This document shows, piece after piece, positions 2,680 through 63,708 of a DNA stretch of 64,000 nucleotides (its first letter is position 1; every line of letters starts with the position of its first letter). The stretch covers positions 87,358,001 to 87,422,000 of the forward strand of contig OX597818.1 of NCBI GenBank assembly GCA_951406725.2, given 5' to 3'. The translations under genes and the position numbers were made by a program. Under the pieces are notes generated by a model. It was not told where the DNA came from. It made no database searches and saw nothing but the letters and a program-made list of their open reading frames with translations. Source of the DNA: Octopus vulgaris. Its lineage: Eukaryota.

Positions 2680-4525
2680 TATAATCAAAATAAGCAACAA
2701 GAATGACTCCGGTAATTTGGTACGATCGTTTCGTACTACATCATTTTATTAAATGTTGTAAGTATTACAACAGTTTTAAAATACTGAGCACTCATCAGCC
2801 AATTATAGAGGTTTTCCGTTAATACAAAAATTTTCATATCAAGTGGCAACATTATAGAGAAGGTAGATACATAGACAAAGATATGTGGATTTAAATTTTA
2901 AGAACATTTGAGGTAGTGGAGCCCATCAACTGACTGACTAAGATTCAGTTGTTCCAGACTACTGTAAGGTTCTGAGAGGGAAGAACAAATGAAAAGAGAC
3001 AATAAAGATTTTCTAATTATAGAAATGGGGTAAAGCTCCATATAAGGAATTTATGTAGAAGACAGCATTGTCACAACTAAATGCCAATTACTACTATTTG
3101 ATGAACAGATTCAGCGTTAGGAGAACTAGGTCAAAGTCAAATTGTCACAATAACATTCACAGAGAATGCAGAGACCTTACAAACCCTATGCATATCAGCA
3201 CAACAGTTGGTCTATAAGTTCCAAGTACTTTGACACGTTAGAATAAAGGAAAAAATCTAAATCTAAAATTTATTCAAATTTGGAGAAAGAGACTATCACT
3301 TATTATGAGTAGGCATAGTACTTATTAACTGGGGGAAAAAGGCCTTATTAATCAAGTGAACATATTAGGGGTCAAAATATATACTAAGAAAGATGGAAGA
3401 GGGAAAACCAAAGGAGGAAGATATTCAAGGTTTAGTAGAAGGCGATATTTTATAACATGAAGAGAGGTAATTTAGAAGAGTAAATTATTCAAATTTCATG
3501 GATAGTGAGTTGATATTAATGGATTAAAATATAGGATCTATTGGAAATAAAATTTACTACCTGCGGAAAAAAGTTAATTAGTTAGGTAAAAACATCTTAG
3601 GTTAATTATATATTAAGAAATGGGAGTGAGATAATCAAGATGAACCAAATAGTTTCCCTAGGGATATAGGATTAATGCTACTTAGTACTGGAGAACATTA
3701 TAAAAAAGAAGAATCATTTATGGGTGTTAAACTAAAACCAGTATGGTATATTCGTTTCTATTTGGTTAAATATATTTTGTAAAGATATCTTAGACTAATT
3801 ATATATTAAGAAATGGAAGTGAGATAATCAAGGTGAACTGAATAATTTCTTTAGGGACATAGGATTCATACTATTTAGTATTCCTACTATTTGGGATTCA
3901 TACTATTTAGGATTCCAACTATTTAAATGCATACAGTTTAATTTTAGAAAAAAGAAGAATTCAATTTTAAGTTTGCAGTGAAGTTATTTTAGTCGTCTAT
4001 AAATGTTAAATTGAAAGCTAGTATGGTATATTCCTTCTTATTTGGTTATAAAGAATTAAAATTTGAAAAATATAGGAATATTCACAAAATTATTATTTAA
4101 AGTATTTAAACGTTCGGGTCGTACGATGTATACAAGAGCCTCCCAGCTCCAAACGGTTATTCAACAGATTTGTATTACTCTGATGTTTCAAAATTTCATA
4201 TGTTTCCATAGAACAGAGTTGACAACCATCCCTACTATTTCTATAAGGTTGCGCTCTTCTAACTATATCCCAATTTTGGTTGAATTCTATATTATTTGTT
4301 TTTAGTTCCCAAATTTTACTAGATAATGTTGTGCAACCTGTCTTATGTTTGAGCCTAAAAGAGGAAAAATGATTGTTTAGACGTTTTTTAAAATCTACCG
4401 AACAACCGAGATAAAGAAAGCTATTATTTGGTAGAGTCTGCAGCCTGTACTTCCGATAAGATGCAGCCCAGAACGTTTCTGCATCCTGCAGTTGATATAC
4501 ACAGACACAGACAAGCACACACACA

Positions 4526-4570
<45 letters not shown>

Positions 4571-4800
4571 ACACACACACACACACACAGACACACACAC
4601 ATGTATAACCAATTAAAATTCTAACATTACGTACTCGTTGGATCCAAAAAGAGGATCTGTGAATAAGCAGTCTAGTCTTAAAGGAGTCTTCGATTGCGCC
4701 GACATATTTCTGTGTATGTTCCATCAATGTTTGTCAACACTAATTTTGCATATTAGGCCAAGGCGTCTATGTTGCGTTGGAATATCCACACTGAAAATAC
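2680..4800 (-). mobile_element. Penelope-like element 3' part: broken GIY-YIG endonuclease, long AT-rich 3' region with ~190-bp tandem duplication, terminal HHR
   Basis: Peptides QKYVGAIEDSFKTRLLIHRSSF and YLGCSVDFKKRLNNHFSSFR..TTLSSKIWELK..WDIVRRAQPY..CQLCSMETYEIL..LLNNRLEL..CIH. The YxG segment occurs twice around a (CA)n tract. Duplication at about 3590-3780 and 3782-4050. Confidence 0.8.
2717..2802 (-). ncRNA. Type I hammerhead ribozyme, canonical core, branched stem II
   Basis: Minus strand: ttgg-CTGATGA-gtgct..(three small hairpins)..agtac-GAAA-cgatcg-TA-ccaa. Lies downstream of a minus-strand Penelope GIY-YIG relic. Confidence 0.88.
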
Positions 4801-8832: not shown

Positions 8833-9412
8833 TCCTTTTTAATGAAAGCACAAATCCATGAAATTTTGGGGGAGGGGACTAGTCGATTACATTGACTACA
8901 GTGTTTCATTGATACTTAATTTATCGACCCGAAAGGATGAAAAGCAAAGTCGACCTCGGCGGAATTTGAACTCAGAACGTAGTGGTAGACGAAATACCTA
9001 TTTCTTTACTACCCACAAAGGGCTAAACACAGAGGACAAACAAGGACAGACAAACGGATTAAGTCGATTAAATCGACCCCAATGTGTAACTGGTACTTAT
9101 TTAATCGACCCCGAAAGGATGAAAGGCAAAGTCGACCTCGGCGGAATTTGAACTCAGAACGTAGCGGCAGGCGAAATACCTATTTCTTTACTACCCACAA
9201 GGGGCTACACACAGAGGGGACAAACAAGGACAGACAGACGGATTAAGTCGATTACATAGACCCCTGTGCGTAACTGGTGCTTAATTTTTCGACCCCGAAA
9301 GGATGAAAGGCAAAGTCGACCTCGGCGGAATTTGAACTCCGAATGTAACGGCAGACGAAATACGGCTACACATTTCGCCCGACGACTTACTTTCTGCCAG
9401 CTCGTTTCTGCC
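8833..9412 (-). mobile_element. Family A SINE multimer (three B-box-containing units, 182-bp period)
   Basis: gtcgacctcggcggaatttgaactc occurs three times; junction gaaatacctatttctttact near 8991 and 9173. Confidence 0.9.
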
Positions 9413-15741: not shown

Positions 15742-15936
15742 TGTAAATAATAAAAGGGTAAAATGAATTAATTATTAATTAATAATTTTACCAAGTAGTG
15801 TTCAGTATGTAAAAAGACCATTTACGGTATATTTAAAACATTACGTTATATAATTAGGGTTCAGTAAAAAAATTTACTTTACCACGCACCGAACTGTTAG
15901 AAATAGCAGCCAAAAAATTTAGCTATTTCATCTACT
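15742..15936 (-). ncRNA. (AT)n-abutting module with the same four-way-junction motif (copy 2, different stem sequences)
   Basis: Minus strand: TGGCTGCTATTT, helix gttcggtgcgt/acatactgaac, hairpins agtaaa/tttact, tata..aacg/tgtt..tata and accg/tggt, ACCCTAA; outer helix agtag/ctact. Confidence 0.6.
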
Positions 15937-15973
15937 ATATATATATATATTTCATCTACTATATATATATGCT

Positions 15974-16878
15974 GTGAGTCAATGGGCAGACAGAAACAAA
16001 ATGCAACTGAATGAGGGAAAATTTGAGCTGATGCATTTTGGAAGAAATTCCTCACTAAAACAACCATACTCTCTTCCTTCAGGGGAACCGCTCACAGCCT
16101 CTAACAATATCAGAGACCTGGGTGTAATTGTTGATGACGATCTCAGTTGGAGTGCACACATCAACAAGAAGGTCGATATAGCTCGTAGGATGAGTTCCTG
16201 GATCTTAAGAACTTTCCGGTCCAGAGAACAAGTTGTCATCATACCACTTTTTCCCTCCTTTATACGGCTACACCTTGAATACTGCTGCCCACTGTGGTCG
16301 CCCCATACAAGACAAAACATCTCCAGAATTGAGTCACCCCAGAGGGCACTCACTAAACGAATTGAAGGCATGGCTGCTCTCGATTATTGGGATCGCCTTA
16401 AAGCCTTGAAACTTTACTCCCTCCAGCGTCGCCGTGAGCGGTACATCATTTGTACGATGTGGAGAATATACCGCCAACTTTGCCCAAAGAACTTAACATT
16501 AGCTTCAAGGTTCATCCAAGACTGGGACCACGGGCCATACGTCCCCTGCCCAATTCAAGATCACAACATACATGTACACTGCAACATAATTTCTTTTCCT
16601 AAACAGGCCCTGCCCTATTTAACATTGTCCCGAGGGAGATCAAAGAGGAAAAGGATCCCATCAACTTTAAACGGAGTCTGGATAGATTCCTTCAAAGAAT
16701 ACCAGATAAGCCACCCATAATTGGATACAACTCACCCAACAAGAACTCACTACTTGAACAAAATTTGACTTAAACAACACTTGACTTAAACAGGACTCGA
16801 ATAATCCTTTCAGGTGGTGCTATTAAGTTAGACATGGCCTGGACCAGTCTTTGGTCGAAACATATCCAAGTTTATCCA

Positions 16879-16949: not shown

Positions 16950-18367
16950 ACCAAAAAGGATCAGTAAGGAATTCATTACTAAATCAATTGAATTCATCCT
17001 ACACAATAACCACTTCATGTTTGACAATACATTTTACCGTCAAAAATCCGGAATTGCTATGGGTACAAGGGCAGCACCAGTCATTGCGAACTTAACAATG
17101 GGATACATGGAAATAATCATTTACCAGGAATCTCTATCAATCTTTGGAAACTCCCTCTCTCAATACATAAAAGAGAATTGGAAACGATTCCTAGACGATT
17201 GTTTCATTCTCTGGAATGAAAACATAGATAAACTCCTAAAATTTAAAAACCTATTGAACAGCATAAACCCAAATATACAGTTCACAATGGAATACAACCA
17301 AAAGGAGCTCCCGTTCTTGGATATACTAATTAAAAAAATTAACCTTAAAATAGAAACAGACATTTTTTACAAAGCCACAGACGCCAAACAATACCTTCTT
17401 TTTAATTCATGCCACCCAAGACACACTAAAACAAACATCCCCTTCAACCTTGCAAGAAGGATATGCACAATAGTGTCAGAACAAAATACCAGGAACTTTA
17501 GACTGCAAGAACTCAAAAACACCCTGATTGACAGACATTACCCAGCTCAACTCATAGAGGATGGGATCAGACGTGCAACAGAAATCAACATAGAAACTTT
17601 AAGAAAAGTTCAACACAACAACACACCTTCCCCGAAAATACTACCTTACATATCTACATACAACCCCAGAAACAAAGAAGCCTTCACCATCATCACCCAG
17701 AATTTACCAATACTTCATAAAAACCCAAAATTAAAGGAAATTCTAAACATACACCAAATCATTAAAAGCTACAAACAGCCTAAATCACTTAAAAAGATTC
17801 TCACAAAGGCAAAATTGTCTTCTAAAATTACGGATGCAAAAGTAAAAAAATGTGGTAGATCGAACTGTGCAACATGTCCTAACCTATTGGAAGGATCAGA
17901 ATTCTTCTTTAAAGAGGGACAGAAATTCAAGATCTTCCCATTTTACCAATGTGCTTTCGGATCATCAACACAAATGAGACTGAACAAGGAAACATTCTTC
18001 ATTGAAAAGTACAAACCCAGACTCAACCATCCGAACATACTGACACAGAGAAATTAACAAGGAAAAGGAAAAAAAATTTTTTAAGCGATTATCTCCCCTA
18101 CACCGGAAAAAATCACTCACTACCTCCCCTTATTTAGAAATCTCCTGGAAATAAAAACAACGATAATTCCATGCAATATAAACATAACGTCACAAGAAAT
18201 TTGAAAAGCTACACGCGAAACCGGTAATTTCTTTAAAAATTTTAAAATTATGTCATTTTAAGGAAAGGGAAAAAAACTTTTTCCAATATTCTCCAGACAT
18301 TTTGACACAAATATATATATTTTTTAACATTTAAGCCTTCTGTCGTTTTTTCACACTTTACTATTTT

Positions 18368-18370
<3 letters not shown>
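16950..18370 (+). mobile_element. Penelope-like element: RT C-terminal half, internally deleted GIY-YIG, 3' HHR, ending at (AT)n
   Basis: Open frame to 18057: NHFMFDNTFYRQKSGIAMGTRAAPVIANLTMG, WKRFLDDCF, IQFTME..LPFLDILI, YLLFNSCHP..NIPFNLARR, CGRSNCATC, ..YKPRLN. Confidence 0.92.
18194..18233 (+). ncRNA. Minimal type I hammerhead, U3-A8 variant, in the Penelope 3' region
   Basis: aagaaat-TTGAAAA-gc-tacac-gc-GAAA-ccgg-TA-atttctt: perfect 7-bp stem I and palindromic stem III. Confidence 0.85.
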
Positions 18371-18413
<43 letters not shown>

Positions 18414-18435
18414 CATACATACATACATACATATA

Positions 18436-18720
18436 AATGATCTAGTGTTTAGAGCAGCGGACTCGCAGGTTCAAATCTCAGATCGGGCGATCTGTGTGTT
18501 TATGAGCGAAACACCAAAGTTCCACGCGGTTCCGGCAGAAGGTAATGGCGAACTTCTGCTGACTCTTTCGCCACAACTTTCTATCACTCTTTCCTCCTGC
18601 ATCTTGCAGCTCACCTGCAACGGACTGGCGTCCCGTCCAGGTGAGGACCTATACGCCAAGGAAACCGGGAAACCGGGAAACCGGCCCCATGAGCCAGGTA
18701 TGGCATGAGAAGGAACAAGA
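18436..18720 (+). mobile_element. tRNA-derived SINE, family C
   Basis: Head tgatctagtg..ggttcaaatc; body ggactggcgtcccgtcc..gaaaccgggaaaccg..cccatgagcc shared with 55950-56182. Confidence 0.75.
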
Positions 18721-21822: not shown

Positions 21823-22920
21823 AAAGCAGCGAACTGGCAGAATCGATAGCACGCCGGGCGAAATGCTTAGCGGTATTTCGTCTGTCGTTACGTTGTGAGT
21901 TCAAATTCCGCCGAGGTTGACTTTGCCTTTCATCCTTTCGGGGTCGATTAAATAAGTACCAGTTTCGCACTGGGGTCGATATAACCGACTTAATCCGTTT
22001 GTCTGTCCTTGTTTCATCCTTTCGGGGTCGATAAATTAAGTACCAGTTCCGCACTGGGGTCGATTACATCGACTTAATCCGTTTTTCTGCCTTGTTTTTC
22101 CGTTCTGTGTTTAGCCCCTTGTGGGTAGTAAAGAAATAGGTATTTCATCTGCCGCCACGTTCTGAGTTCAAATTCCGCTGAAGTCGACTTTGCCTTTCAT
22201 CTTTTCGGGGTCGATTAAATAAGTATCAGTTACATACTGGAATCGATATAATCAACTTAATCCGTTTGTCTGTTCTTGTTTGTCCTCTGTGTTTAGCCCC
22301 TTGTGGGTAGTAAAGAAATAGGTATTTCGTCTGCCATTACGTTCTGAATTCAAATTCCGCCGACCTCCACTTTGCCTTTCATCCTTTCGGGGTCGATAAA
22401 TTAAGTACTAGTTACACACTGGGGTCGATGTAATTGAGTTAATTCCCTTATCTGTCCTTGTTTGTCCCCTCTATGTTTAGCCTCTTTTGGGCAATAAAGA
22501 AATAAGAATCGTTAGCGCTGCTTTTTCGTCTGTCTTTAGGTTCTGAGTTCAAATTCCGTTGAGGTCCACTTCGCCTTTTATACTTTCGTAGTCAAGAAAA
22601 TAAGTACCAGTTGAGAACTGGGGTCGGTATAATCGAGTTAACTTTTCCTCTTAAATTTCAGGCCTTGCGCCTATAACAGAACGGCTTATGGATATTATGC
22701 AAAAGGTGGTGAGCTGGTAGAATGATGAGCACGTTAGACAAAATGCTCAGCGGTTTTTCTTCCGTCTTTATGTTCTGAGTTCAAATTCCACTGAAGTCGA
22801 CTTTGTTTTTCCTCCTTTCGGGGGTGATGAAATAAGTACCAGTTGAGCACTGGGGTCGATGTAACCGACTTAACACCTTCCTTAGAGTTGCTGCCTTTGT
22901 GCCAAAATTAGAAATAAAAA
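21823..22920 (+). mobile_element. Head-to-tail cluster and multimer of family A SINEs
   Basis: Five ga(g/a)ttcaaattcc B boxes; junction aaagaaataggtatttc at about 22130 and 22312. Confidence 0.9.
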
Positions 22921-31184: not shown

Positions 31185-31654
31185 CGGCCATCGGAAAAAT
31201 GCTATGAAAAATGACCGTTATACAAAGGGAAATTACTGTGATTGACCGTTATTAAGACAAAAGAGCTATTTGAATGACCGCTAAATAAGGGGAGGGAGTA
31301 AAAGTAAGGGGGTAAAAAAAGTTCATAGTATTCACGTTAGCGCGCATGTTCATACCTATACATGTGCGCCTGAACACCTACGTGCGTGCGCCTAAAAGTA
31401 TACATTCATCCACTCTCACTTGATAAACGTACTCACTTGCATCATTCGCCAAATATATTCCAAACTTTTGGCCACGACTGTATGTATATTTCATGTATTC
31501 AGCTACAATTTGCTCTCAGGTTGCCGAAATTTTGATCATAGTCCCATTTTTTCAAGGTTATAGAGGCTATAATGATTTTCTGCGATAATTTCTACAAACC
31601 TTTAAAAGGCTGGCCTTATGCCAAAATTTGAAACCAGTAATTTTATGTAGAGTA

Positions 31655-32148
31655 AAGTGGTGAGTTGGCAGAATCGTTAGCACGCTGGGCAAAATGCTTA
31701 GCGGCATTTCGTCCGTCCTTTACGTTCTGAGTTCAAATTCTCCGCCGAGGTCAACTTTGCCTTTCATCTTTTCGGGGACGATAAAATAAGTATCAGTTGA
31801 GCACTGGGGTCGAGGTAATTGGCTATCCCCCTCCCCCATCCCACACCCATATTTCTGGCCTTGTACCTAGGGCAGACAGGTTATTAAAGGAGGCGAACTG
31901 GCAGAATCGTTAGCACGCCGGGCGAAATGCTTAGCGGTATTTCGTCCGCCGCTGCGTTCTGAGTTCAAATTCCGCCGAGGTCGACTTTGCCTTTCATCCT
32001 TTCAGGGTCGATAAATTAAGCACCAGTTACGCATTGGGGTCGATGTAATCGACTTAATCCGCTCGTCTGTCCTTGTTTGTCTCCTCTGTGTGTAGCCCCT
32101 TGTGGGTAGTAAAGAAATAGATATTTCGTCTAGCGCTTCGTTCTGAGT
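31655..32148 (+). mobile_element. Two adjacent family A SINEs plus the start of a further multimer unit
   Basis: Heads at about 31655 and 31888; junction aaagaaatagatatttcgtct at about 32111. Confidence 0.88.
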
Positions 32149-32959: not shown

Positions 32960-33646
32960 ATGATTTAGATTAAAGATTAGGGTCAGAGTCAAGGTTTAGG
33001 GTTGATGTTTAGGGTTGGGGTTTAGAGTTGGGATTTAGGATTGGGGTCATTGTAGAATTAGGGTTTAGGGTTAGAGTTAGGGTTTATGGTTGGAGTTTAG
33101 GGTTAGAATTAGGGTTTAGGCTTAGGGTTAGGGTTAGGGTTTAGGGTCAAGGCGGCGAGCTGGCAGAAACGTTAGCACGCCGGGCGAAATGCTTATTTCT
33201 TCTGCCATTACGTTCTGAGTTCAAATTCCGTCGAGGTCGACTTTGCCTTTCATTCTTTCGGGGTCGATAAATTAAGTACCAGTTACGCACTGGGGTCGAT
33301 GTAATCGACTTAATCTCTTTGTCTGCCCTTGTTTGTCTCCTCTATGTTTAGCCCCTTGTGGGCAATAAAGAAATAAGAATTAAGGTTTAGGGTTAGGGTT
33401 TAGGGTTAGAATTAAGGCTTAGGATTAGAGTTAGGGTTCATAGATGGGGTTTAAGATTAGAATTGGAGTTTAGAGTTATAGCTAGGGTTTAGAGTTAGAA
33501 TTATGATTAGGCTTAGAGTTAGGGTTCATAGATGGGGTTTAAGATTAGAATTGGAGTTTAGTGTTATAGTTAGGGTTTAGAGTTAGAATTATGATTAGGC
33601 TTAGAGTTAGGGTTTAGGGTTCTGGTTTAGGGTTAGAATTAGGGTC
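32960..33646 (+). repeat. Degenerate interstitial (TTAGGG)n-like array interrupted by a family A SINE (33150-33377)
   Basis: ttaggg, ttagag, ttagaa and tttaggg units; ttagggttagggtttagggt on both sides of the SINE. Confidence 0.9.
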
Positions 33647-33649
33647 AGG

Positions 33650-34893
33650 TGTTGCTCAGCACTCGTAGAGAGAAGACGTCCATTTGCTGCTTGCTGTCTT
33701 CGTGTTGCTTCTTATTTTGTTTATAATTTACCCTGAAAATGTCAAAAAAAAAAGAAAAGAAAAGAAAAGATAAACTGCTGACATCCCAATGGATAACATC
33801 GAGAAAAAGAAAAGGAAACATTTATTATTATCAAAAGTAGAGTTACTACAGAAACTTGATCGTGATGTGTCTGTGCGGTGGCTCACTGAAGAATACGAAA
33901 ACATTCCTGTAGACGATATGATGAAAATGTGTGATCGTCTAATATCTGGCCTCGAACAACGTGCATTTATTAGTGAGGAACAGATTATGGAAGTTTACTC
34001 AATTAAAGAGACATTGCTTAGACAGAAAAATATGCTAATGAGAGAGATGACACTTAAAAATGCTCTCTCTTGTAGTGCTGCTTCATCACTTTAGAATCCC
34101 GTTCCTGGCCCATCATCGGAAGTTTGCCTGCAACCTGATGACGACGTTGGTGATACTGATGGACGCTTTGAAGGCGGCGAGCTGGCAGAACCGTTAGCAC
34201 GCCGGGCGAAATGTGTAGCCGTATTTCGTCTGCCGCTACGTTCTGAGTTCAAATTCCGCCGAGGTCGACTTTGCCTTTCATCCTTTCGGGGTCGATTAAA
34301 TAAGTACCAGTTACGCACTGGGTCGATGTAATTGACTTAATCCCTTTGTCTGTCCTTGTTTGTCCCCTCTATGTTTAGCCCCCTGTGGGCAATAAAGAAA
34401 TAGATACTGATGGACCCAGTTCTACAACTTAACTGCAGATACATATTTAGCCTAGTTTGAACCAGTTTATGGCTCTAGCATATAAATAAACTGTTATTAC
34501 CATTTGTAGCCTTTCTTTATTTAAACCAGTTTGAATACTTAAACGTCTATCTACAGAAATATTATGGTAATGTGTATACCTGCACTTGTGAATCGTGTAT
34601 TTTTGTTTTAAATTATCCCACTATATGTATTTTGTTATTTATGTTCTTAATTATCTCGCTATTTCATTTACCTGTATATTACTCTATAAATAAATTATAA
34701 TAATATTTGTAATCTTTATTTCCGCCACTGATTGTGAGTACGTGTACATGTGCTTTTGCTACCATAGTAGGATGTCTGCTTTGATGTCTAGTTTACAATC
34801 TGGGGCAGCTGGCTTTTGTTCTGAAATCCGAAAAAATATGAAATTCAGAACACAACTGTCCCCAATTGTGCCCGATAAAGGATTATGTACCTG
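33650..34893 (+). mobile_element. Tigger/pogo-like deletion derivative
   Basis: ORF 33789-34094 joins an N-terminal HTH start (KRKHL..KVELLQKLD..VSV..LTEEY) to a C-terminal segment (IPVDDMMKMCD.LISGLEQRAFISEEQIM), with no DDE core; right end ..gattatgtacctg|TA. Confidence 0.65.
34171..34402 (+). mobile_element. Full-length family A SINE with 13-bp TSD
   Basis: gatactgatggac at 34152-34164 and 34403-34415. Confidence 0.93.
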
Positions 34894-35493: not shown

Positions 35494-37038
35494 CACTGGT
35501 CAACAAAATGAAACTTTTTTTAATCATCAGAGTTGTTGATTGACTTTTCTGGGTTAATTTTTGATGCTGATTACAAATCTGAAGTTTGATTTCCTCTATC
35601 AGGTCACATTTTCATGTTAATGATACCTGCTGTTTTAACTTATAGGATACGTAAAGCATGTCTATATGAAGTATACTGAATATAAGATAGGATAATTTCA
35701 TGGATTTTTATTGTACAAAATTAAAATTATTGTGTACAAATTAGTTAGAATACACTCAAATGCATAACGACTTAAAATCTTTGGGATTTGAACTTTCTAT
35801 GATGTTCTGTCTCAGGTTCATCCCTGTATAACATTTTGGAATGCAGCTAACATTCCTGCATTACAAAATCCTTGATATAGTTGTTCCATCTTGATGAAAG
35901 CATTCCCCTTGCAAAAAAGTCCCGATGTGAATCAAGGAAATGGACTTTTAGTGATATCCGACAGCCCATTGCAGCGTAGGAGTCTAGAAGACATTTTACT
36001 CCCTTTCTAAACTCTAGAGATCTCTTGTTGCCTAGGAAATTTTCACAGAGCCATTTGAAGGATTCCCAGACTTTAAGCTCAGTCTCATCCAGTGCTGTAA
36101 GGAAGTGGTTGTCCCTCAGGAGTTCTTTTATCTGCGGACCTATGAATACGCCCTCCTTTAGTTTCGCCTCGGTGATTTTTGGAAATTTGGCCTTCACATA
36201 TTCAAAACCTTTTGAGCTTTTCCTGGCAAGTGTCTTCACGAATTGTTTCATGAGGCCAAGCTTTATGTGAAGAGGGGGAAGAAGAACATTTTCTGGGTTT
36301 AAAAGTTGCTTACTCTGGATGCTAGAAACCCCCGGATCATATGATTTTTGCAAAGGCCACTCTGATTGCACATAGTGCTTGTTAGTTGCACGACTGTCCC
36401 ATAGGCATAAAAAGCAACAATATTTCATGAACCCAGATTGCATCCCCATCAACATTCCATTCCCCTTCAAGTCTCCACATATTTTCCAGCTATAGTTTAT
36501 ATACTTTATGGCATTGAGGAGTATTTGCATGTTTTCATAACACTCCCTCATGTGCACTGAGTGTCTTATGGGAATGGATGGTTTCTTATTGCCGTTGTGT
36601 AGTAGTACTGCCTTGAGGTTTCTCTTAGATGACTCCATGAATAAGCGCTATTCAGCTGGAATATGCTCTTGGAACAAACAGCTAAATAACTCATCAGTGA
36701 GTCATTACTGAAACAAAATGGTCCATCAACAGAGAAGCATGAAGACAGATCCCTATAATGAGTAATACAGACATCTTTATTAAGCAGACATTTTTCATTT
36801 AGGTGAGTTCAGCTTTATCCTTCAACAATGACAAGTCTAAATCATTTAACTCTCCTTGAGAAAATTTCCTTGGTACGTCTCATTTTCAATCGCGAAATCT
36901 GCATCCACTTCAGTGTCTTCCACAGCAGTAGTACTTTCTTCAGGAAATACATCTTCATCAGACATCTGAAGGCCATTTTCTGGTGGTATTGGAATAGGAA
37001 GATCATCATCGTTGTGTGGTACTGGTCTTCTTGCTGAT
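35494..37038 (-). mobile_element. Chapaev3-like (CMC superfamily) DNA transposon relic
   Basis: ORF 35847-36638: SSKRNLKAVLLHNGN, WKICGDLK, CCFLCLWDSRA, LLPPLHIKLGLMKQFVK, AKLKEGVFIGPQI, SLKVHFLDSH; upstream RPVPHNDDDLPIPIPP; terminus CACTG at 35494. Confidence 0.8.
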
Positions 37039-44789: not shown

Positions 44790-45030
44790 TTTCTTCTCCT
44801 GCGTTTTACCTCCTCATTTTATCTGTTCTGCTCGAAGAAGCTGGCTCTATTGCAGATGACAGTCCTCCAGGCTGTCCTATCCATGACAATCTGTTCCCAT
44901 GAGGATAGCTGGATGTTAGTCTGAGCCAGGGTCTGTTTGAGCTGGTCTTTAAAACGGAATTCCGGGCATTCCCTGGGTCCTGTTCCGATTACAAGTTCTC
45001 GGGAGACGAGACGGCTTCGTACGCTGGACA
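44790..45030 (-). mobile_element. RTE (BovB-like) LINE C-terminal fragment
   Basis: ELVIGTGPRECPEFRFKDQLKQTL..WEQIVMDRTAWRTVI..FEQNR. Confidence 0.7.
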
Positions 45031-45346
45031 TGACCTGCCTAGCAGAGACGATGGCGAAGAATGGGACAGATTGACCTTCTACTCTGCTATGCATGCGCAC
45101 TAAATTTTAACCTTCTCGCTTTCTTCCGCTGTTTACAGTAGTGCTTGAAAGGAACGTGTGTAGAGTGTGATTGTTGCATTGGGCATGACAGAGAAATCTG
45201 AGCAGAGAATCTGCCTCAAATATATATACATACACATGCATATGCAAATATACATACATACATACATACATACATACATAATATATACATACATACATAC
45301 ATACATACATACATACATACATACATACATACATACATACATACAT

Positions 45347-47479: not shown

Positions 47480-47590
47480 TCTGACAGCTGTTTCGGCAAT
47501 AAGGGCAAGCATGCCTCATTTAACCTATAAGCCATATAAGGCACGTATAAATGAGACATTAACAAGGATGCCCCACCGCCTCTTCAGAGA
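47480..47590 (-). ncRNA. Type I hammerhead ribozyme with very long stem II
   Basis: Minus strand: tct-CTGAAGA-ggcggtggggca..atgtctcattta/taaatgaggcat..tgcccttattgcc-GAAA-cagctg-TC-aga. Confidence 0.85.
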
Positions 47591-48216: not shown

Positions 48217-49015
48217 CATATCCACAAACAACGTCCAACACATAAATAAATAAATAATAAAAGAGGTATAGTCCTATCAATGCAGCCATCCAGCCTCTCA
48301 AAACTACAACCATGCCACAAAATTAACAAAATAGATCCACTCACATATTTCCATAAAATATTTGTTTTAAAGATACATATATTTATATATCACGACATCG
48401 AATGTTATTTACGCAGGGTACACGTAGAATGTGGCACCGGTCTTATCTGTAGTCAACATAACGATTACTGATTTCAACGTAATTTGCTATAATCGCATGT
48501 ACGCTAAGTTATAAAGTATAGATTAATTTTTTATATTATAAATATATATCTTTTCTACGTAATAAATCAAGTGCCATTATAATATTAATATTTAACCAAC
48601 AAGGAACCTAACCTACGAACTAATAGAATTACACTCAGATATACATATTCTTGTGTATCAGCAGATATAAACAAACGCACCGTCTATTCTCATATGTGGC
48701 TCGCAAGTACTTATATATAAATATACTTTTAAGCAACCGTGGACACATAGATAACAAATGTGATAATTAACAAGATTTGGCATTAAATAATATCAATGGG
48801 GGACTAACCAATACAATTATATATAAGTAAATAACAGAAATTAAATTAATTATAAGTTAATAAATTGTAAATACTTAAGTTAAAAATATGATAAAATAAA
48901 TAAGAAGAAATAATTAAAATTATATACATAATATAAGTACAAACCAGTATACATGTATCCATATATTATTAAAATAAATAATTGATATGCATGTATATAT
49001 CTACACTTAAATAAG

Positions 49016-49046
<31 letters not shown>

Positions 49047-49580
49047 CTAAATAAGTAGATGACTAAATGAATAGATAGATACCATAGAGAACAAATTCAG
49101 ATAAATGCATAGGTACAGGTACACCTAATATGTAGTAATGCTAATATGCATATATCCACATATGCTTAAAAGAGTATATATGTAAATAAATAACATAAAA
49201 TAAAGTGAAGATATATATTGAAGAAAGTACTAATATAAACTTAGTATACAGGCTAATATTATGTAAATTTATACCTGTAGATAATGAGTAAAAAAATGAA
49301 TAGATGAATAACATAATGTACAAATCCAGAAGACTATAAATATAGACCAAATATATAAGGCTGCTAATATTTATAAAGCCAAATGTGAGTAAATGAAAAG
49401 GTTTATTAATAAATAGCATAAGATACAAATTAAAGTGAGTACAAAGATACACCAAATATACAATATATAAGCCTGCCAAATAAACACATACAAAAACCCA
49501 AATTCCCAACCCAAACAAACAAACTCCCAAAAAGACTCTCCCATGGTGGGTTGAATTTTCAACCCCTATCTCATTTTATA

Positions 49581-49651
<71 letters not shown>

Positions 49652-50783
49652 TATATATATATAATATGAATTAGAGATAAAACCACTATTAGGCAACTCA
49701 AACAGTGATAGGTATAAACCAATACATAAATAACAAATAATATAAACATAATTAATATAATATATATATATATATATATATTTAAACTTTTAAATTTTTA
49801 AGTTTAAAATTTTCCAAAAAGTATAAAACAAATGATAAATATATACTCCACATATATATTAATAGTTATCGCCAAGCTAATGTGGCAGTCCATAAATATA
49901 GGGCGAAAGCTGCCGTTGATTAGCTCTAAGCGGCCATCGCCTCTAGCTAGCTATATTATAACATTCGAACAGGGAGGTCAGCCGCATATCCACAAACAAC
50001 GTCCAACACATAAATAAATAAATAATAAAAGAGGTATAGTCCTATCAATGCAGCCATCCAGCCTCTCAAAACTACAACCATGCCACAAAATTAACAAAAT
50101 AGATCCACTCACATATTTCCATAAAATATTTGTTTTAAAGATACATATATTTATATATCACGACATCGAATGTTATTTACGCAGGGTACACGTAGAATGT
50201 GGCACCGGTCTTATCTGTAGTCAACATAACGATTACTGATTTCAACGTAATTTGCTATAATCGCATTTACGCTAAGTTATAAAGTATAGATTAATTTTTT
50301 ATATTATAAATATATATCTTTTCTACGTAATAAATCAAGTGCCATTATAATATTAATATTTAACCAACAAGGAACCTAACCTACGAACTAATAGAATTAC
50401 ACTCAGATATACATATTCTTGTGTATCAGCAGATATAAACAAACACACCGTCTATTCTCATATGTGGCTCGCAAGTACTTATATATAAATATACTTTTAA
50501 GCAACCGTGGACACATAGATAACAAATGTGATAATTAACAAGATTTGGCATTAAATAATATCAATGGGGGACTAACCAATACAATTATATATAAGTAAAT
50601 AACAGAAATTAAATTAATTATAAGTTAATAAATTGTAAATACTTAAGTTAAAAATATGATAAAATAAATAAGAAGAAATAATTAAAATTATATACATAAT
50701 ATAAGTACAAACCAGTATACATGTATCCATATATTATTAAAATAAATAATTGATATGCATGTATATATCTACACTTAAATAAG

Positions 50784-50814
<31 letters not shown>

Positions 50815-51348
50815 CTAAATAAGTAGATGACTAAATGAATAGATAGATACCATAGAGAACAAATTCAGATAAATGCATAGGTACAGGTACACCTAATATG
50901 TAGTAATGCTAATATGCATATATCCACATATGCTTAAAAGAGTATATATGTAAATAAATAACATAAAATAAAGTGAAGATATATATTGAAGAAAGTACTA
51001 ATATAAACTTAGTATACAGGCTAATATTATGTAAATTTATACCTGTAGATAATGAGTAAAAAAATGAATAGATGAATAACATAATGTACAAATCCAGAAG
51101 ACTATAAATATAGACCAAATATATAAGGCTGCTAATATTTATAAAGCCAAATGTGAGTAAATGAAAAGGTTTATTAATAAATAGCATTAGATACAAATTA
51201 AGGTGAGTACAAAGATACACCAAATATACAATATATAAGCCTGCCAAATAAACACATACAAAAACCCAAATTCCCAACCCAAACAAACAAACTCCCAAAA
51301 AGACTCTCCCATGGTGGGTTGAATTTTCAACCCCTATCTCATTTTATA

Positions 51349-51419
<71 letters not shown>

Positions 51420-51754
51420 TATATATATATAATATGAATTAGAGATAAAACCACTATTAGGCAACTCAAACAGTGATAGGTATAAACCAATACATAAATA
51501 ACAAATAATATAAACATAATTAATATAATATAATATATATATATATATATTTAAACTTTTAAATTTTTAAGTTTAAAATTTTCCAAAAAGTATAAAACAA
51601 ATGATAAATATATACTCCACATATATATTAATAGTTATCGCCAAGCTAATGTGGCAGTCCATAAATATAGGGCGAAAGCTGCCGTTGATTAGCTCTAAGC
51701 GGCCATCGCCTCTAGCTAGCTATATTATAACATTCGAACAGGGGAGGTCAGCCG
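48217..51754. repeat. Near-identical tandem duplication, 1768-bp period
   Basis: catatccacaaacaacgtcc at 48217 and 49985; paired ORFs 48280/50048 and 49141/50909; only a few substitutions plus microsatellite length differences seen. Confidence 0.95.
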
Positions 51755-51986
51755 CTTCCCCTTGCTGGTGAGGCAGCTGAAGACTAGTTTCAGGATATTT
51801 GCCCTTTATCAATGCAGAGTAGCCGAACCCAGCAGGGATCGCTGCTGAGCGTCTGTTCGAAGGGTTATTTACCTAAATTCAGTGGAATACATCCACTGGT
51901 TTTCAAAATTAGAAATATTATTATTTCTAAGTCTCTCTAAAGGAGATTACGGCAGCGGTACTGGATATTAATAGTTATCACCAAGC
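51625..51986 (-). ncRNA. ~340-nt terminally redundant, highly structured unit containing a U3-A8 hammerhead (51777-51817)
   Basis: Direct repeat atattaatagttatc(g/a)ccaagc at 51625 and 51965. Minus-strand HHR: ctgca-TTGATAA-aggg-caaata-tcct-GAAA-ctag-TC-ttcag. Nested long-range helices. Confidence 0.75.
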
Positions 51987-52041
51987 ATGCTTTAGCTTCG
52001 TTACTATGGCAACAGTCCGGATATTTGTTGAACAGACCTCG
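51986..52041. mobile_element. Isolated mariner-type TIR end
   Basis: Reverse complement reads TA|cgaggtctgttcaacaaatatccggac, a typical mariner terminus. Confidence 0.6.
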
Positions 52042-52120
<79 letters not shown>

Positions 52121-53071
52121 TTATATAATTCTGTGTATATATATGTGTGTTTAGGAGTGTACATATATGTATATGTATGCGCCTGCACAGGCACCTGCAA
52201 AATAACCACCCACATACATACTCATTGTTATTTTTAAAAAGCACTCTGTCGCTGATATCTATCAATTGAAAGCATTACTTAGAAGTATTATTTTAGAATA
52301 TTGCTTAAATAGCAATCCAATTTCACGTCTTCGATTACATGGGATTTATGACGTACATAATAATATTACCACGATAACCAGAAATGAAATCAAAAGTGTG
52401 TGTCTGAAGCTGTCTTTTTCGCACGTGTCGTTCACAAAGATTTTTAAACGAAAGAACGTGAAGAAAAGAGTTTACTTCAAACTTGCACTTCATATTTAAA
52501 AAAAAATATTCAGACAGCGGATATTCAAAAGAAAACCAGGATTGGTTTACCAGTAAATGATCGGAAACGAGCAACTCTGGTTACTGGAAATCAGAGCCTT
52601 TACACTTATATCTTTGTGCATGTTTGTACAAGCGAGTGTACTTGTGTCACACAACCTAAGCAAGGGCGTTTATATATCCATATCTGTGAACGGTTATATT
52701 TAATACTTTTTTCACTGTATTGTGTATTCGTTACTTTTTGCATCTATTAATTATTATTGATCTTATATAAAAATAATTTGCTGCTTCTCTGTACACAAAC
52801 TGAGAAGACATCTTGCGCAATAGCCGTTATTTTAATGAGATATATCTTGTAATCACTCAAAGAGACACATCTACACCGTCAGATACTCCCAAATCAGTTG
52901 TCAAGTATCCCACCCGTGAGGGATCAATGCTAGATAGGCCGAAACAATTGTAGTCATTAATAAACATTCTCGTATCTTCCATCTTCCGTCTCTCTCATTA
53001 ATCAAATATACGACGGAAACATATATTCTAAAAGAGAAGCAAGTCCGAAATGAGCCGAGCTTTCGAGCCAG

Positions 53072-53122
53072 TCTTAACTGATGAGGCAACGGAAATTGCC
53101 GAAACTGACGTCAGTATCAAGA
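53072..53122 (+). ncRNA. Type I hammerhead ribozyme, canonical core, 12-nt palindromic stem III
   Basis: tcttaa-CTGATGA-ggcaa-cggaaa-ttgcc-GAAA-ctgacgtcag-TA-tcaaga. Confidence 0.9.
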
Positions 53123-62227: not shown

Positions 62228-62436
62228 TCTTTTCTACTCTAGGCACAAGGCCCGAAATTTTTGGGAAGAGGGCCAGTCGATTAGATCGACTCTAGTACGC
62301 AACTGGTACTTAATTTATCGACCCCGAAAGGATGAAAGGCAAAGTCGGGCTCGGCGGAATTTGAACTCAGAACGTAAAGACAGACGAAATACTGCTAGGC
62401 AATTCGCCCGGCGTGCTAACGCTTCTGCCAACTCGC
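62228..62436 (-). mobile_element. Family A SINE
   Basis: aggcacaaggcccgaaatt..cggcggaatttgaactcagaacg..cgcccggcgtgctaacg. Confidence 0.88.
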
Positions 62437-63708
62437 ATCATTACACACACACACACACACACACACTCACATGTATATAAGTTGTATTAAAAAGTTTAGG
62501 TAGGAGACTTTAAGGTGCACATCGTTCTCCCCCCCCCCAGGGAACAGTGCAGAAGTAAGCCTAAACGATCGTTGTCCTAAATAAAGCTTCCAGTATACTT
62601 TGTTTTCAATCGTTTAGAATGTGTGTGTATATATATATATACATACACACACCGAAGTTACGAACAGGTCTTTTACGAAATATTTACCGTATTTTTATAG
62701 TCATTTTCACTATAAATTTTTTTTAAATGCCAAAAATGTTTTGTAATGGTATGCATTTGAAAATAATTTAAAAAAAAAACATTAAAATATTGTCTGTTTA
62801 AAGAAAGCCACAATATCTATACTTACTGTAGAAAGAACTTACATTTTTGAAATCACATTTCTAAATGATTAAATTATTGTATTTAACAAAAACAGAAATA
62901 GAATCATTTACTGTGAAAAACAACTCATATTTTTTCGTTGGGAAGTTAGTCACTAATGTGTCTAATCGGAAGGTAAGAGTTTCTTCCCTTCCAGGGTTAA
63001 GGTATTTTCGGAGTATTTTCCCATCATGCACCGTTTTGGGTATTTATAACCCAAAACCCCTAATATCTCAAGAATCACTTGTCCGATTTATTCGAAACTT
63101 GTTTTATTCCGTTCGTATTCACATTTCAAGGGAGACTTAATTCACAGTATTTTCCCATTATGCGCCAGTGTGACTGTGTAATATTGAAGCAAGCAAGAAA
63201 GAACGAAGCTCATGTATTATATTTATATATCGTTGCTATTATGCAAAAGTGTCGTAAGTCCAAAACGTTGTTTTTTCAGAGAACTCCATAGCAAAACTGT
63301 TGTACTACAGTTTGACAGTATTTGATATCCTGGCATCTGAAGCAGCTGGAGATACGATAGTTTGACCAAAAGAACTAGCTATTGCAAGCAAAAATAAATA
63401 TTGACAGTTTAACATAATATCAACGATATATTGTGAATTCAAATAAACAAACAATTCAAATAAACGAATACAAAAAAAAAAGAATAAAACGAACGTGAGG
63501 ACGTGCACAGGACGCTCGGTGGAAGGAGAGAGTTTGATGTAGAGCTCTTTAAGAAAGGGGTAAGAAAGGGATTTATGCCTTTCTTAAAGAGCTCTACCCT
63601 CCTGATCTTAATATTCATAAGGGCCTTTATATAGGTAGCCCTTCTAATTAAGTGCCCCTAAGTAACTATAAATATCATGTATGGAGTAACAATAACTTCT
63701 TAAACCTA

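Follow-up and report, generated by a model that had tools for sequence, protein, structure and literature searches.

A retrozyme-like copy with terminal redundancy

Positions 51625 to 51986 of the 64,000-nucleotide Octopus vulgaris stretch analyzed here ("the window"; assembly GCA_951406725.2, contig OX597818.1, positions 87,358,001 to 87,422,000) hold a worn, single-hammerhead copy of a high-copy noncoding family with end-to-start joints. The family is likely a metazoan non-LTR retrozyme, with a predicted circular RNA of 340 to 361 nt. The direct repeat, the contigs from public sequencing runs, and the predicted fold delimit a minus-strand copy of 362 bases, i.e., one 340-nt unit plus a 22-nt overlap, within AT-rich, microsatellite-rich animal DNA. 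Five of the defining features of metazoan non-LTR retrozymes that were tested were found in the unit, its family, or the window.

The overlap is a direct repeat formed by 51625 to 51646 and 51965 to 51986. The initial annotation had proposed a 22-nt repeat at an offset of 340 nt, and this is borne out at 21 of 22 positions, the identity not being perfect; in 40 dinucleotide shuffles of 51560 to 52040, the longest repeat with at most one mismatch reached only 9 to 13 nt. The left copy corresponds to the 3′ end of the hammerhead strand, and the last two bases of the right copy are common to the neighboring repeat. No other direct repeat is found at the unit ends, where there is no LTR layout (PBS and PPT judged by layout alone). 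The 340-nt unit has a G+C content of 44% and is noncoding, its longest ATG frames when read as a circle being 42 aa (plus strand) and 21 aa (minus strand), and it falls within the size and composition rule for metazoan non-LTR retrozymes (about 150 to 450 bp, G+C below 50%, no protein). No polymerase III A box was found on either strand of the unit, and B-box-like words were only loose.

The unit belongs to a high-copy family

Twenty public sequencing runs containing the unit were listed, of 24 rows, under five organism labels, none of them labeled as RNA. Contigs from four of the 24 runs were aligned on the 489 bases from 51552 to 52040 at 80% likeness; X1 and X9 (organism labels A and E) are guessed to be DNA, and X15 and X16 are guessed to be RNA. 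X1 contributed 6,509 contigs and X9 5,510, those of the neighboring repeat included. In X1, the summed depth was 33.5 at 51552 to 51568, 1,257 to 2,114 at 51586 to 51619, and 17,800 to 698,000 across the unit, the last being 500 to 20,000 times the left flank, a many-copy signal. The step is abrupt, from about 1,250 at 51603 to 51619 to about 229,000 at 51620 to 51636, a drop of some 180-fold just left of 51620. X9 showed the same step at the left edge and a summed depth of 18,700 to 983,000 across the unit. Summed contig depth counts overlapping contigs and is not a copy number; single-joint depth, which was 53 to 73 as a rule, suggests as a rough estimate that the family likely numbers hundreds to thousands of copies.

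Joints leading from the unit end back to the unit start were present in all four runs aligned (15 joints listed of 37). The joint from 51964 to 51625 was seen in X1, X15, and X16, in two contigs each, whose shorter arm spans 33 to 60 letters; equivalent joints carrying bridging letters occurred in X1 and X9, and 41 X9 contigs continued past 51986 into sequence resembling the unit head. No contig spanning two hammerheads was found among the 32 listed of 12,734 pieces, so the joints could stem from permuted monomers rather than dimers. No loose end marking a fixed family end at 51625 was seen among the 24 rows listed of 606, a weak negative given that most rows lie outside these 24. Many other copies carry an extra 21-nt hairpin between 51723 and 51724; it is seen as loose ends in 50 contigs each of X1 and X9, so a variant of about 361 nt exists. 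X15 and X16, the runs guessed to be RNA, contain the unit and its joint as the DNA runs do; contig depth is no measure of expression, and a circle and a tandem transcript give the same sequence in contigs.

Four single-contig joints, from other copies, connect 51683 to 51769 to the opposite strand and all end at 51984 to 51986, a pattern that would fit either truncated copies in inverted orientation or more than one insertion into a single site of the neighboring repeat. Whole copies sought with a 26-nt hammerhead pattern numbered zero in viral and zero in metagenome contigs. A 21-nt pattern retrieved one metagenome locus, one bacterial genome locus, and no viral locus; both loci were dropped, being alike over the 21-mer only.

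A type I hammerhead on the minus strand

The unit carries a type I hammerhead at 51767 to 51829, recognized by motif search, shuffles, family letters, and comparison of its loops with those in PMC2632901 (this and the other sources cited by identifier were available in part, and statements about them refer to those parts). The U3-A8 hammerhead placed at 51777 to 51817 by the initial annotation has the right coordinates; its strand, previously unstated, is the minus strand. Helix I pairs 51818 to 51813 with 51781 to 51776, its distal part reaching 51829/51767, with an internal loop 1 of UAC opposite U. The core with U3-A8 (51812 to 51806) is followed by helix II (51805 to 51802 with 51795 to 51792, loop CAAAUA), GAAA (51791 to 51788), and a palindromic hexamer as helix III (51788 to 51783). 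C17 is 51782, and the predicted cut lies between 51782 and 51781. A descriptor, written after the motif had been seen, matched in 0 of 5,000 unit shuffles and 0 of 30 window shuffles versus two real matches within the window.

In the locus copy, two of the six helix I pairs are mismatched, at 51780 and 51776, and the helix has a pair probability of at most 0.31 in the fold model. Rfam at gathering score gave no match over the whole window; among 23 weak matches in 51400 to 52200 none was a hammerhead, and 51755 to 51840 gave none. Both the weak helix I of the locus copy and the lack of an Rfam hammerhead match count against the retrozyme reading. With its single damaged hammerhead, the 51625-to-51986 copy is likely dead and on its own could not set a monomer free.

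The family letters, drawn from short unphased contigs and not from whole copies, restore both pairs and thereby helix I (minus strand, 51818 to 51776). The family has C at 51780 in 66,475 of 67,023 (X1) and 63,307 of 63,475 (X9) and in all of X15 and X16, and T at 51776 in 68,109 of 73,804 (X1) and 63,559 of 63,748 (X9). G at 51795 (98% in X1, 81% in X9) turns the fourth helix II pair from G-U into G-C, and C or T at 51770 lengthens distal helix I. Since 51812 and 51807 have no difference row among the 40 listed of 93 although their neighbors do, U3-A8 is, judging from these letters, most likely the core of the family hammerhead. It is a natural, active covariation of the hammerhead core (PMC3088659), present in about 1,300 Schistosoma mansoni Penelope-like motifs (PMC4209133).

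As predicted from the family letters, the motif would thus be a canonical type I hammerhead with a Schistosoma loop 2 and a U3-A8 core, matching the "canonical" metazoan type of PMC4209133. It shares with the S. mansoni type I hammerhead (PMC2632901) the loop 2 CAAAUA, the 5′ U of loop 1 with UAC opposite, and, in family letters, a 6-bp helix I and a 4-bp helix II. It differs from the S. mansoni motif described there in its U3-A8 core, in the pairing (G-C) of two further loop 1 positions, and, for the locus copy, in the two helix I mismatches.

Penelope-like elements in the window

Penelope-like elements, which accompany metazoan retrozymes in the same genome, are represented in the window by an RT-HTH fragment (16957 to 18054) and a GIY-YIG frame (4096 to 4620). 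At an E value of at most 1e-30, the RT fragment has 263 relatives, many of which carry RVT_1 and GIY-YIG. In the 120 relatives listed, every named host protein comes from a mollusc (Argonauta, Octopus, oysters, abalone, scallop), and the highest-ranking of these is from Argonauta (54%). Inserted behind a TA run, the plus-strand element at 16957 to 18240 comprises the RT fragment, a Cys-rich linker, and an endonuclease end that is shortened. The GIY-YIG frame fragment, on the minus strand, had a Pfam E value of 0.00037, below cut-off, with protein atlas matches named GIY-YIG.

Further hammerheads occur at 2798, 18201, 47030, 47587, and 53078. The one at 2798 to 2721 (minus), 1.3 kb beyond the GIY-YIG fragment, has a 59-nt helix II region. 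The one 147 nt past the stop of the RT fragment combines a U3-A8 core as in the unit with a palindromic helix III and a helix I of 7 bp. Between 46900 and 47750, two hammerheads of minimal type, one per strand (47030 plus, 47587 minus), face a TA run, that at 47587 having a 10-bp helix II and an insert of about 65 nt. In the hammerhead at 53078 to 53116 (plus), helix III has a palindrome of unusual length, 12 nt.

The left flank of the unit (51436 to 51554, minus strand), beside a TA run, is related in inverted orientation to the tail downstream of the 47030 minimal hammerhead (alignment score 118 versus at most 61 in 100 shuffles), and by this resemblance probably derives from a Penelope-like element, as its 3′ tail.

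The proximity of these elements raises the question of whether the unit could be the pLTR (3′ terminal repeat) of a 5′-truncated Penelope-like element, its joints reflecting partial tandem insertion and no independent circular RNA. Penelope-like pLTRs do bear type I hammerheads, U3-A8 included (PMC4209133), Penelope-like elements insert as partial tandems, and a preprint derives retrozymes from pLTRs (bioRxiv 10.64898/2026.07.22.740005); at hand are also the U3-A8 hammerhead behind the RT fragment and a left flank resembling the tail behind a minimal hammerhead. The minimal pLTR hammerheads (Cervera and de la Peña 2014, PMC4209133) are, like that of the unit, of type I with a palindromic helix III for dimer cleavage. 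However, as described there they have a helix II of 7 to 8 bp, a helix I of 4 to 5 bp, and no defined loop 1 and they flank an RT-endonuclease frame. The octopus unit shows none of this: its hammerhead is of the canonical kind, with 6 bp in helix I, 4 bp in helix II, and Schistosoma-type loop-loop letters.

Neither a minimal hammerhead nor an adjoining RT plus GIY-YIG frame was found at this locus; the 63 frames scanned, of 75 with at least 45 aa within 43 to 58 kb, gave no RT or GIY-YIG match. Depth falls about 180-fold at the left edge of the unit, and copies reenter the head instead of other sequence. Of six hammerhead or Penelope-like regions elsewhere in the window, the pLTR at 18055 to 18500 included, none resembled the unit beyond shuffles, and the unit has no sequence link to the Penelope-like ends there (78 to 94 and 66 of 100 shuffles reached as high a score). 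Taken together, we consider a pLTR origin of this copy unlikely, and a non-LTR retrozyme the better description.

Several changes across the family preserve pairing on the hammerhead strand

Positions 51785 and 51786 change at equal depth (5,877 and 5,863 in X1, 638 and 638 in X15, 47 and 47 in X16; rare in X9), and this double change converts one helix III palindrome into another. At 51833/51844, one X9 consensus of nine contigs has T-A in place of C-G, a double change. With the changes at 51770 (the X1 letter), 51805, and 51856, the minus strand still pairs, through G-U, and the plus strand does not. An exception is T at 51815, the majority letter in X9 (26,131 of 28,336) and present at 14% in X1, which breaks a minus-strand helix I pair unless 51779 changes; a compensating 51779 change is absent among the 40 difference rows listed of 93. 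The paired helices I and II, the palindrome-keeping helix III, and the wobbles on the hammerhead strand point to selection that would act on a single-stranded RNA.

These patterns bear on the possibility that the family is a dispersed satellite that now spreads at the DNA level, through unequal crossing-over or circular DNA, with no present-day RNA step and with the hammerhead as a relic. The joints are seen in DNA runs and hence need no RNA, the locus copy is damaged, and local DNA amplification is also invoked in the 2026 preprint (bioRxiv 10.64898/2026.07.22.740005). Yet helices I and II are kept paired, the helix III change preserves the palindrome, the 51833/51844 change is double, and the wobbles at 51770, 51805, and 51856 pair on the hammerhead strand only. 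Such a purely DNA-borne satellite appears very unlikely compared with an RNA-borne retrozyme.

Predicted fold of the unit RNA

The linear fold of the 340-nt unit was better than those of 100 of 100 shuffles on each strand (z of −4.53 plus, −4.31 minus). Folding as a circle, a check that the initial annotation had called for, likewise predicted a stable, self-paired molecule (MFE −102.8 kcal/mol, z −4.37), which 0 of 60 shuffles equaled.

All 15 helix words quoted in the initial annotation are present, at the given places where places were given. The nested helices it described (51678/51949 and 51733/51853) are recovered in the predicted fold. A long-range 8-bp helix (51678 to 51685 with 51949 to 51956, minus strand) is predicted to close a multibranch domain spanning 51678 to 51956. 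Within it lie an inner 9-bp helix (51733 to 51741 with 51853 to 51861) bearing the hammerhead arm and the hairpins 51880 to 51898 and 51909 to 51930, all with minus-strand pair probabilities of 0.71 to 1.0. Of the hairpins it listed, all words exist, with minus-strand pair probabilities of 0.00 for ggggag/cttcccc and 0.2 for cagcag/ctgctg.

The two mutually exclusive folds did not hold up, the local ggcag/ctgcc and gctaat/attagc helices having a probability of 0.00 versus 0.92 to 1.0 for the long-range pairing. A conformational switch through the local alternative (51644 to 51694) was rejected, at 0.00 in the linear minus, circular minus, and plus strands, and the alteration of the gctaat arm in the X9 run-on consensus is a further point against it. 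The stretch from 51748 to 51848 may fold in two ways: energy favors a rod (pair probability of 0.75 to 0.79 in the locus copy) and the 51833/51844 double change (nine X9 contigs) favors local hairpins, a fold that places the variable 51837/51838 in a hairpin loop.

Junctions of the copy and surrounding sequence

To the right, 51985 to 52042 is the end of a separate high-copy repeat, which ends at a TA run and which we take to be a mariner-like inverted-repeat end. Its other copies extend left of 51985/51988 with other sequence (124 plus 148 contigs in X1, 141 plus 219 in X9), indicating that it was cut by the unit, with two bases in common.

The reading of the locus as a retrozyme-like monomer plus overlap, rather than an insert between ordinary target-site duplications (TSDs), gains support here, as other copies of the unit run from its end into its start and the other copies of the right neighbor lack the 22-mer, which thus belongs to the unit. 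A 318-nt insertion between 22-nt TSDs is largely refuted and barely credible, for although metazoan retrozymes may have TSDs longer than 4 bp (PMC7229834), the 22-mer is itself high copy (summed depth of 229,000 to 545,000 at 51620 to 51653) and elsewhere joined to the unit on both sides.

A partial duplicate of the unit (51625 to 51755), with no hammerhead, lies at 49856 to 49985 on the minus strand (99.2% identity over 131 nt). It forms part of a 1.77-kb tandem duplication (48217 to 49985 and 49985 to 51755; 99.6% identity over 1,771 nt) whose breakpoint at 51755, within the retrozyme-like unit, is either real or an assembly product.

Other elements of the window include a dispersed repeat of about 180 to 250 nt (8881 to 9363, 21928 to 22504, 31653 to 32148, 33149 to 34406, and 62233 to 62442), in places with short tandem runs of period 182 to 184, presumably an octopus SINE-like repeat. 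The frames at 15923 to 16717 (plus) and 44822 to 45106 (minus) we assume to be LINE C-terminal fragments, and that at 35850 to 36647 (minus) a DNA transposase fragment; none of the three had a Pfam match at cut-off. A degenerate TTAGGG-like array with an 88-nt higher-order period occupies 32993 to 33653, distant from the window ends.

Relation to known retrozymes

Metazoan non-LTR retrozymes measure 350 to 390 bp in mussels, 220 to 245 bp in corals, and 330/350 bp in the axolotl (Cervera and de la Peña 2020, PMC7229834). Like those described there, the octopus unit is noncoding, a few hundred bases long, below 50% G+C, of high copy number, and highly self-paired, with one canonical type I hammerhead per unit, length variants by indels of about 20 nt, and Penelope-like elements in the genome. 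Size, G+C content below 50%, the 20-nt-scale indel, and the weak palindromic helix III match PMC7229834 and PMC4209133. It departs from the retrozymes of PMC7229834 in having a U3-A8 instead of a C3-G8 core, the published cores being compared by their text alone, and from the arrays reported there in that the locus is a monomer plus overlap and the octopus circles and their cleavage are predicted from sequence.

A parallel also exists with the solo "monomer" copies of Li, Clavereau and Pollet (2026, bioRxiv 10.64898/2026.07.22.740005), dispersed single units of families that also have dimers and multimers, for which descent from Penelope-like pLTRs was proposed. By the rule of that preprint for "active" loci, i.e., two consecutive hammerhead units, the locus copy is not active. 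Its survey of 35 species covers, in the part available, vertebrates, insects, and a coral and no mollusc. As a caution on activity, eight of nine Xenopus retrozyme dimers showed no in vitro cleavage and one of nine was cleaved (same preprint). We found no description of a cephalopod retrozyme in the literature searched, subscription papers, repeat databases, and key supplements lying largely outside its coverage; a giant squid paper, in the part available, merely counts 235 Rfam hammerhead matches.

Proposed cycle and implications

Following the published model (PMC7229834, PMC7761336) for read-through, dimer cutting, ligation, and Penelope-like reverse transcription, a tandem copy would be transcribed by read-through into a multimer RNA, in which cutting at 51782/51781 would follow the pairing of two hammerheads via their palindromic helix III. 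An RtcB-like ligase of the host would then close the monomer. Because ligation of a circle at 51782/51781 gives back the sequence of the genome, no new junction is expected there, contrary to the monomer junction suggested in the initial annotation. A Penelope-like reverse transcriptase may go more than once round the circle or multimer, and we infer that the locus copy arose in this way, as a reverse transcript begun near 51625 that would have run one round plus 22 nt and been joined to the neighboring repeat through the two common bases. Given its lone hammerhead and the two mismatches in helix I, this copy would probably be unable to make a circle itself.

More specifically, a Penelope-like reverse transcriptase might have been primed at the TA run on the Penelope 3′ tail (51436 to 51554), switched template to retrozyme RNA at 51625, and run one round plus 22 nt. 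This is a tentative scenario that we regard as doubtful, and the idea of a helper enzyme draws on the U3-A8 core common to the unit and the Penelope-like element (18201 to 18207).

Corals, mussels, and salamanders are known to have non-LTR retrozymes, which give rise to abundant circular RNAs, and the enzyme mobilizing animal retrozymes is still merely proposed. The present data add a high-copy, probably octopod family, found under at least two organism labels (A and E) and with no description in the literature searched, that leaves the known picture of the retrozyme class unchanged. Of specialist interest are the apparent U3-A8 family core of its canonical loop-loop hammerhead and the paired change keeping helix III palindromic, which may be read as natural evidence for dimer-gated cleavage. 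If the template-switch scenario were true, this cephalopod family would name the helper enzyme lacking in the retrozyme model, and an abundant U3-A8, dimer-gated circular RNA would be predicted in octopus tissues.
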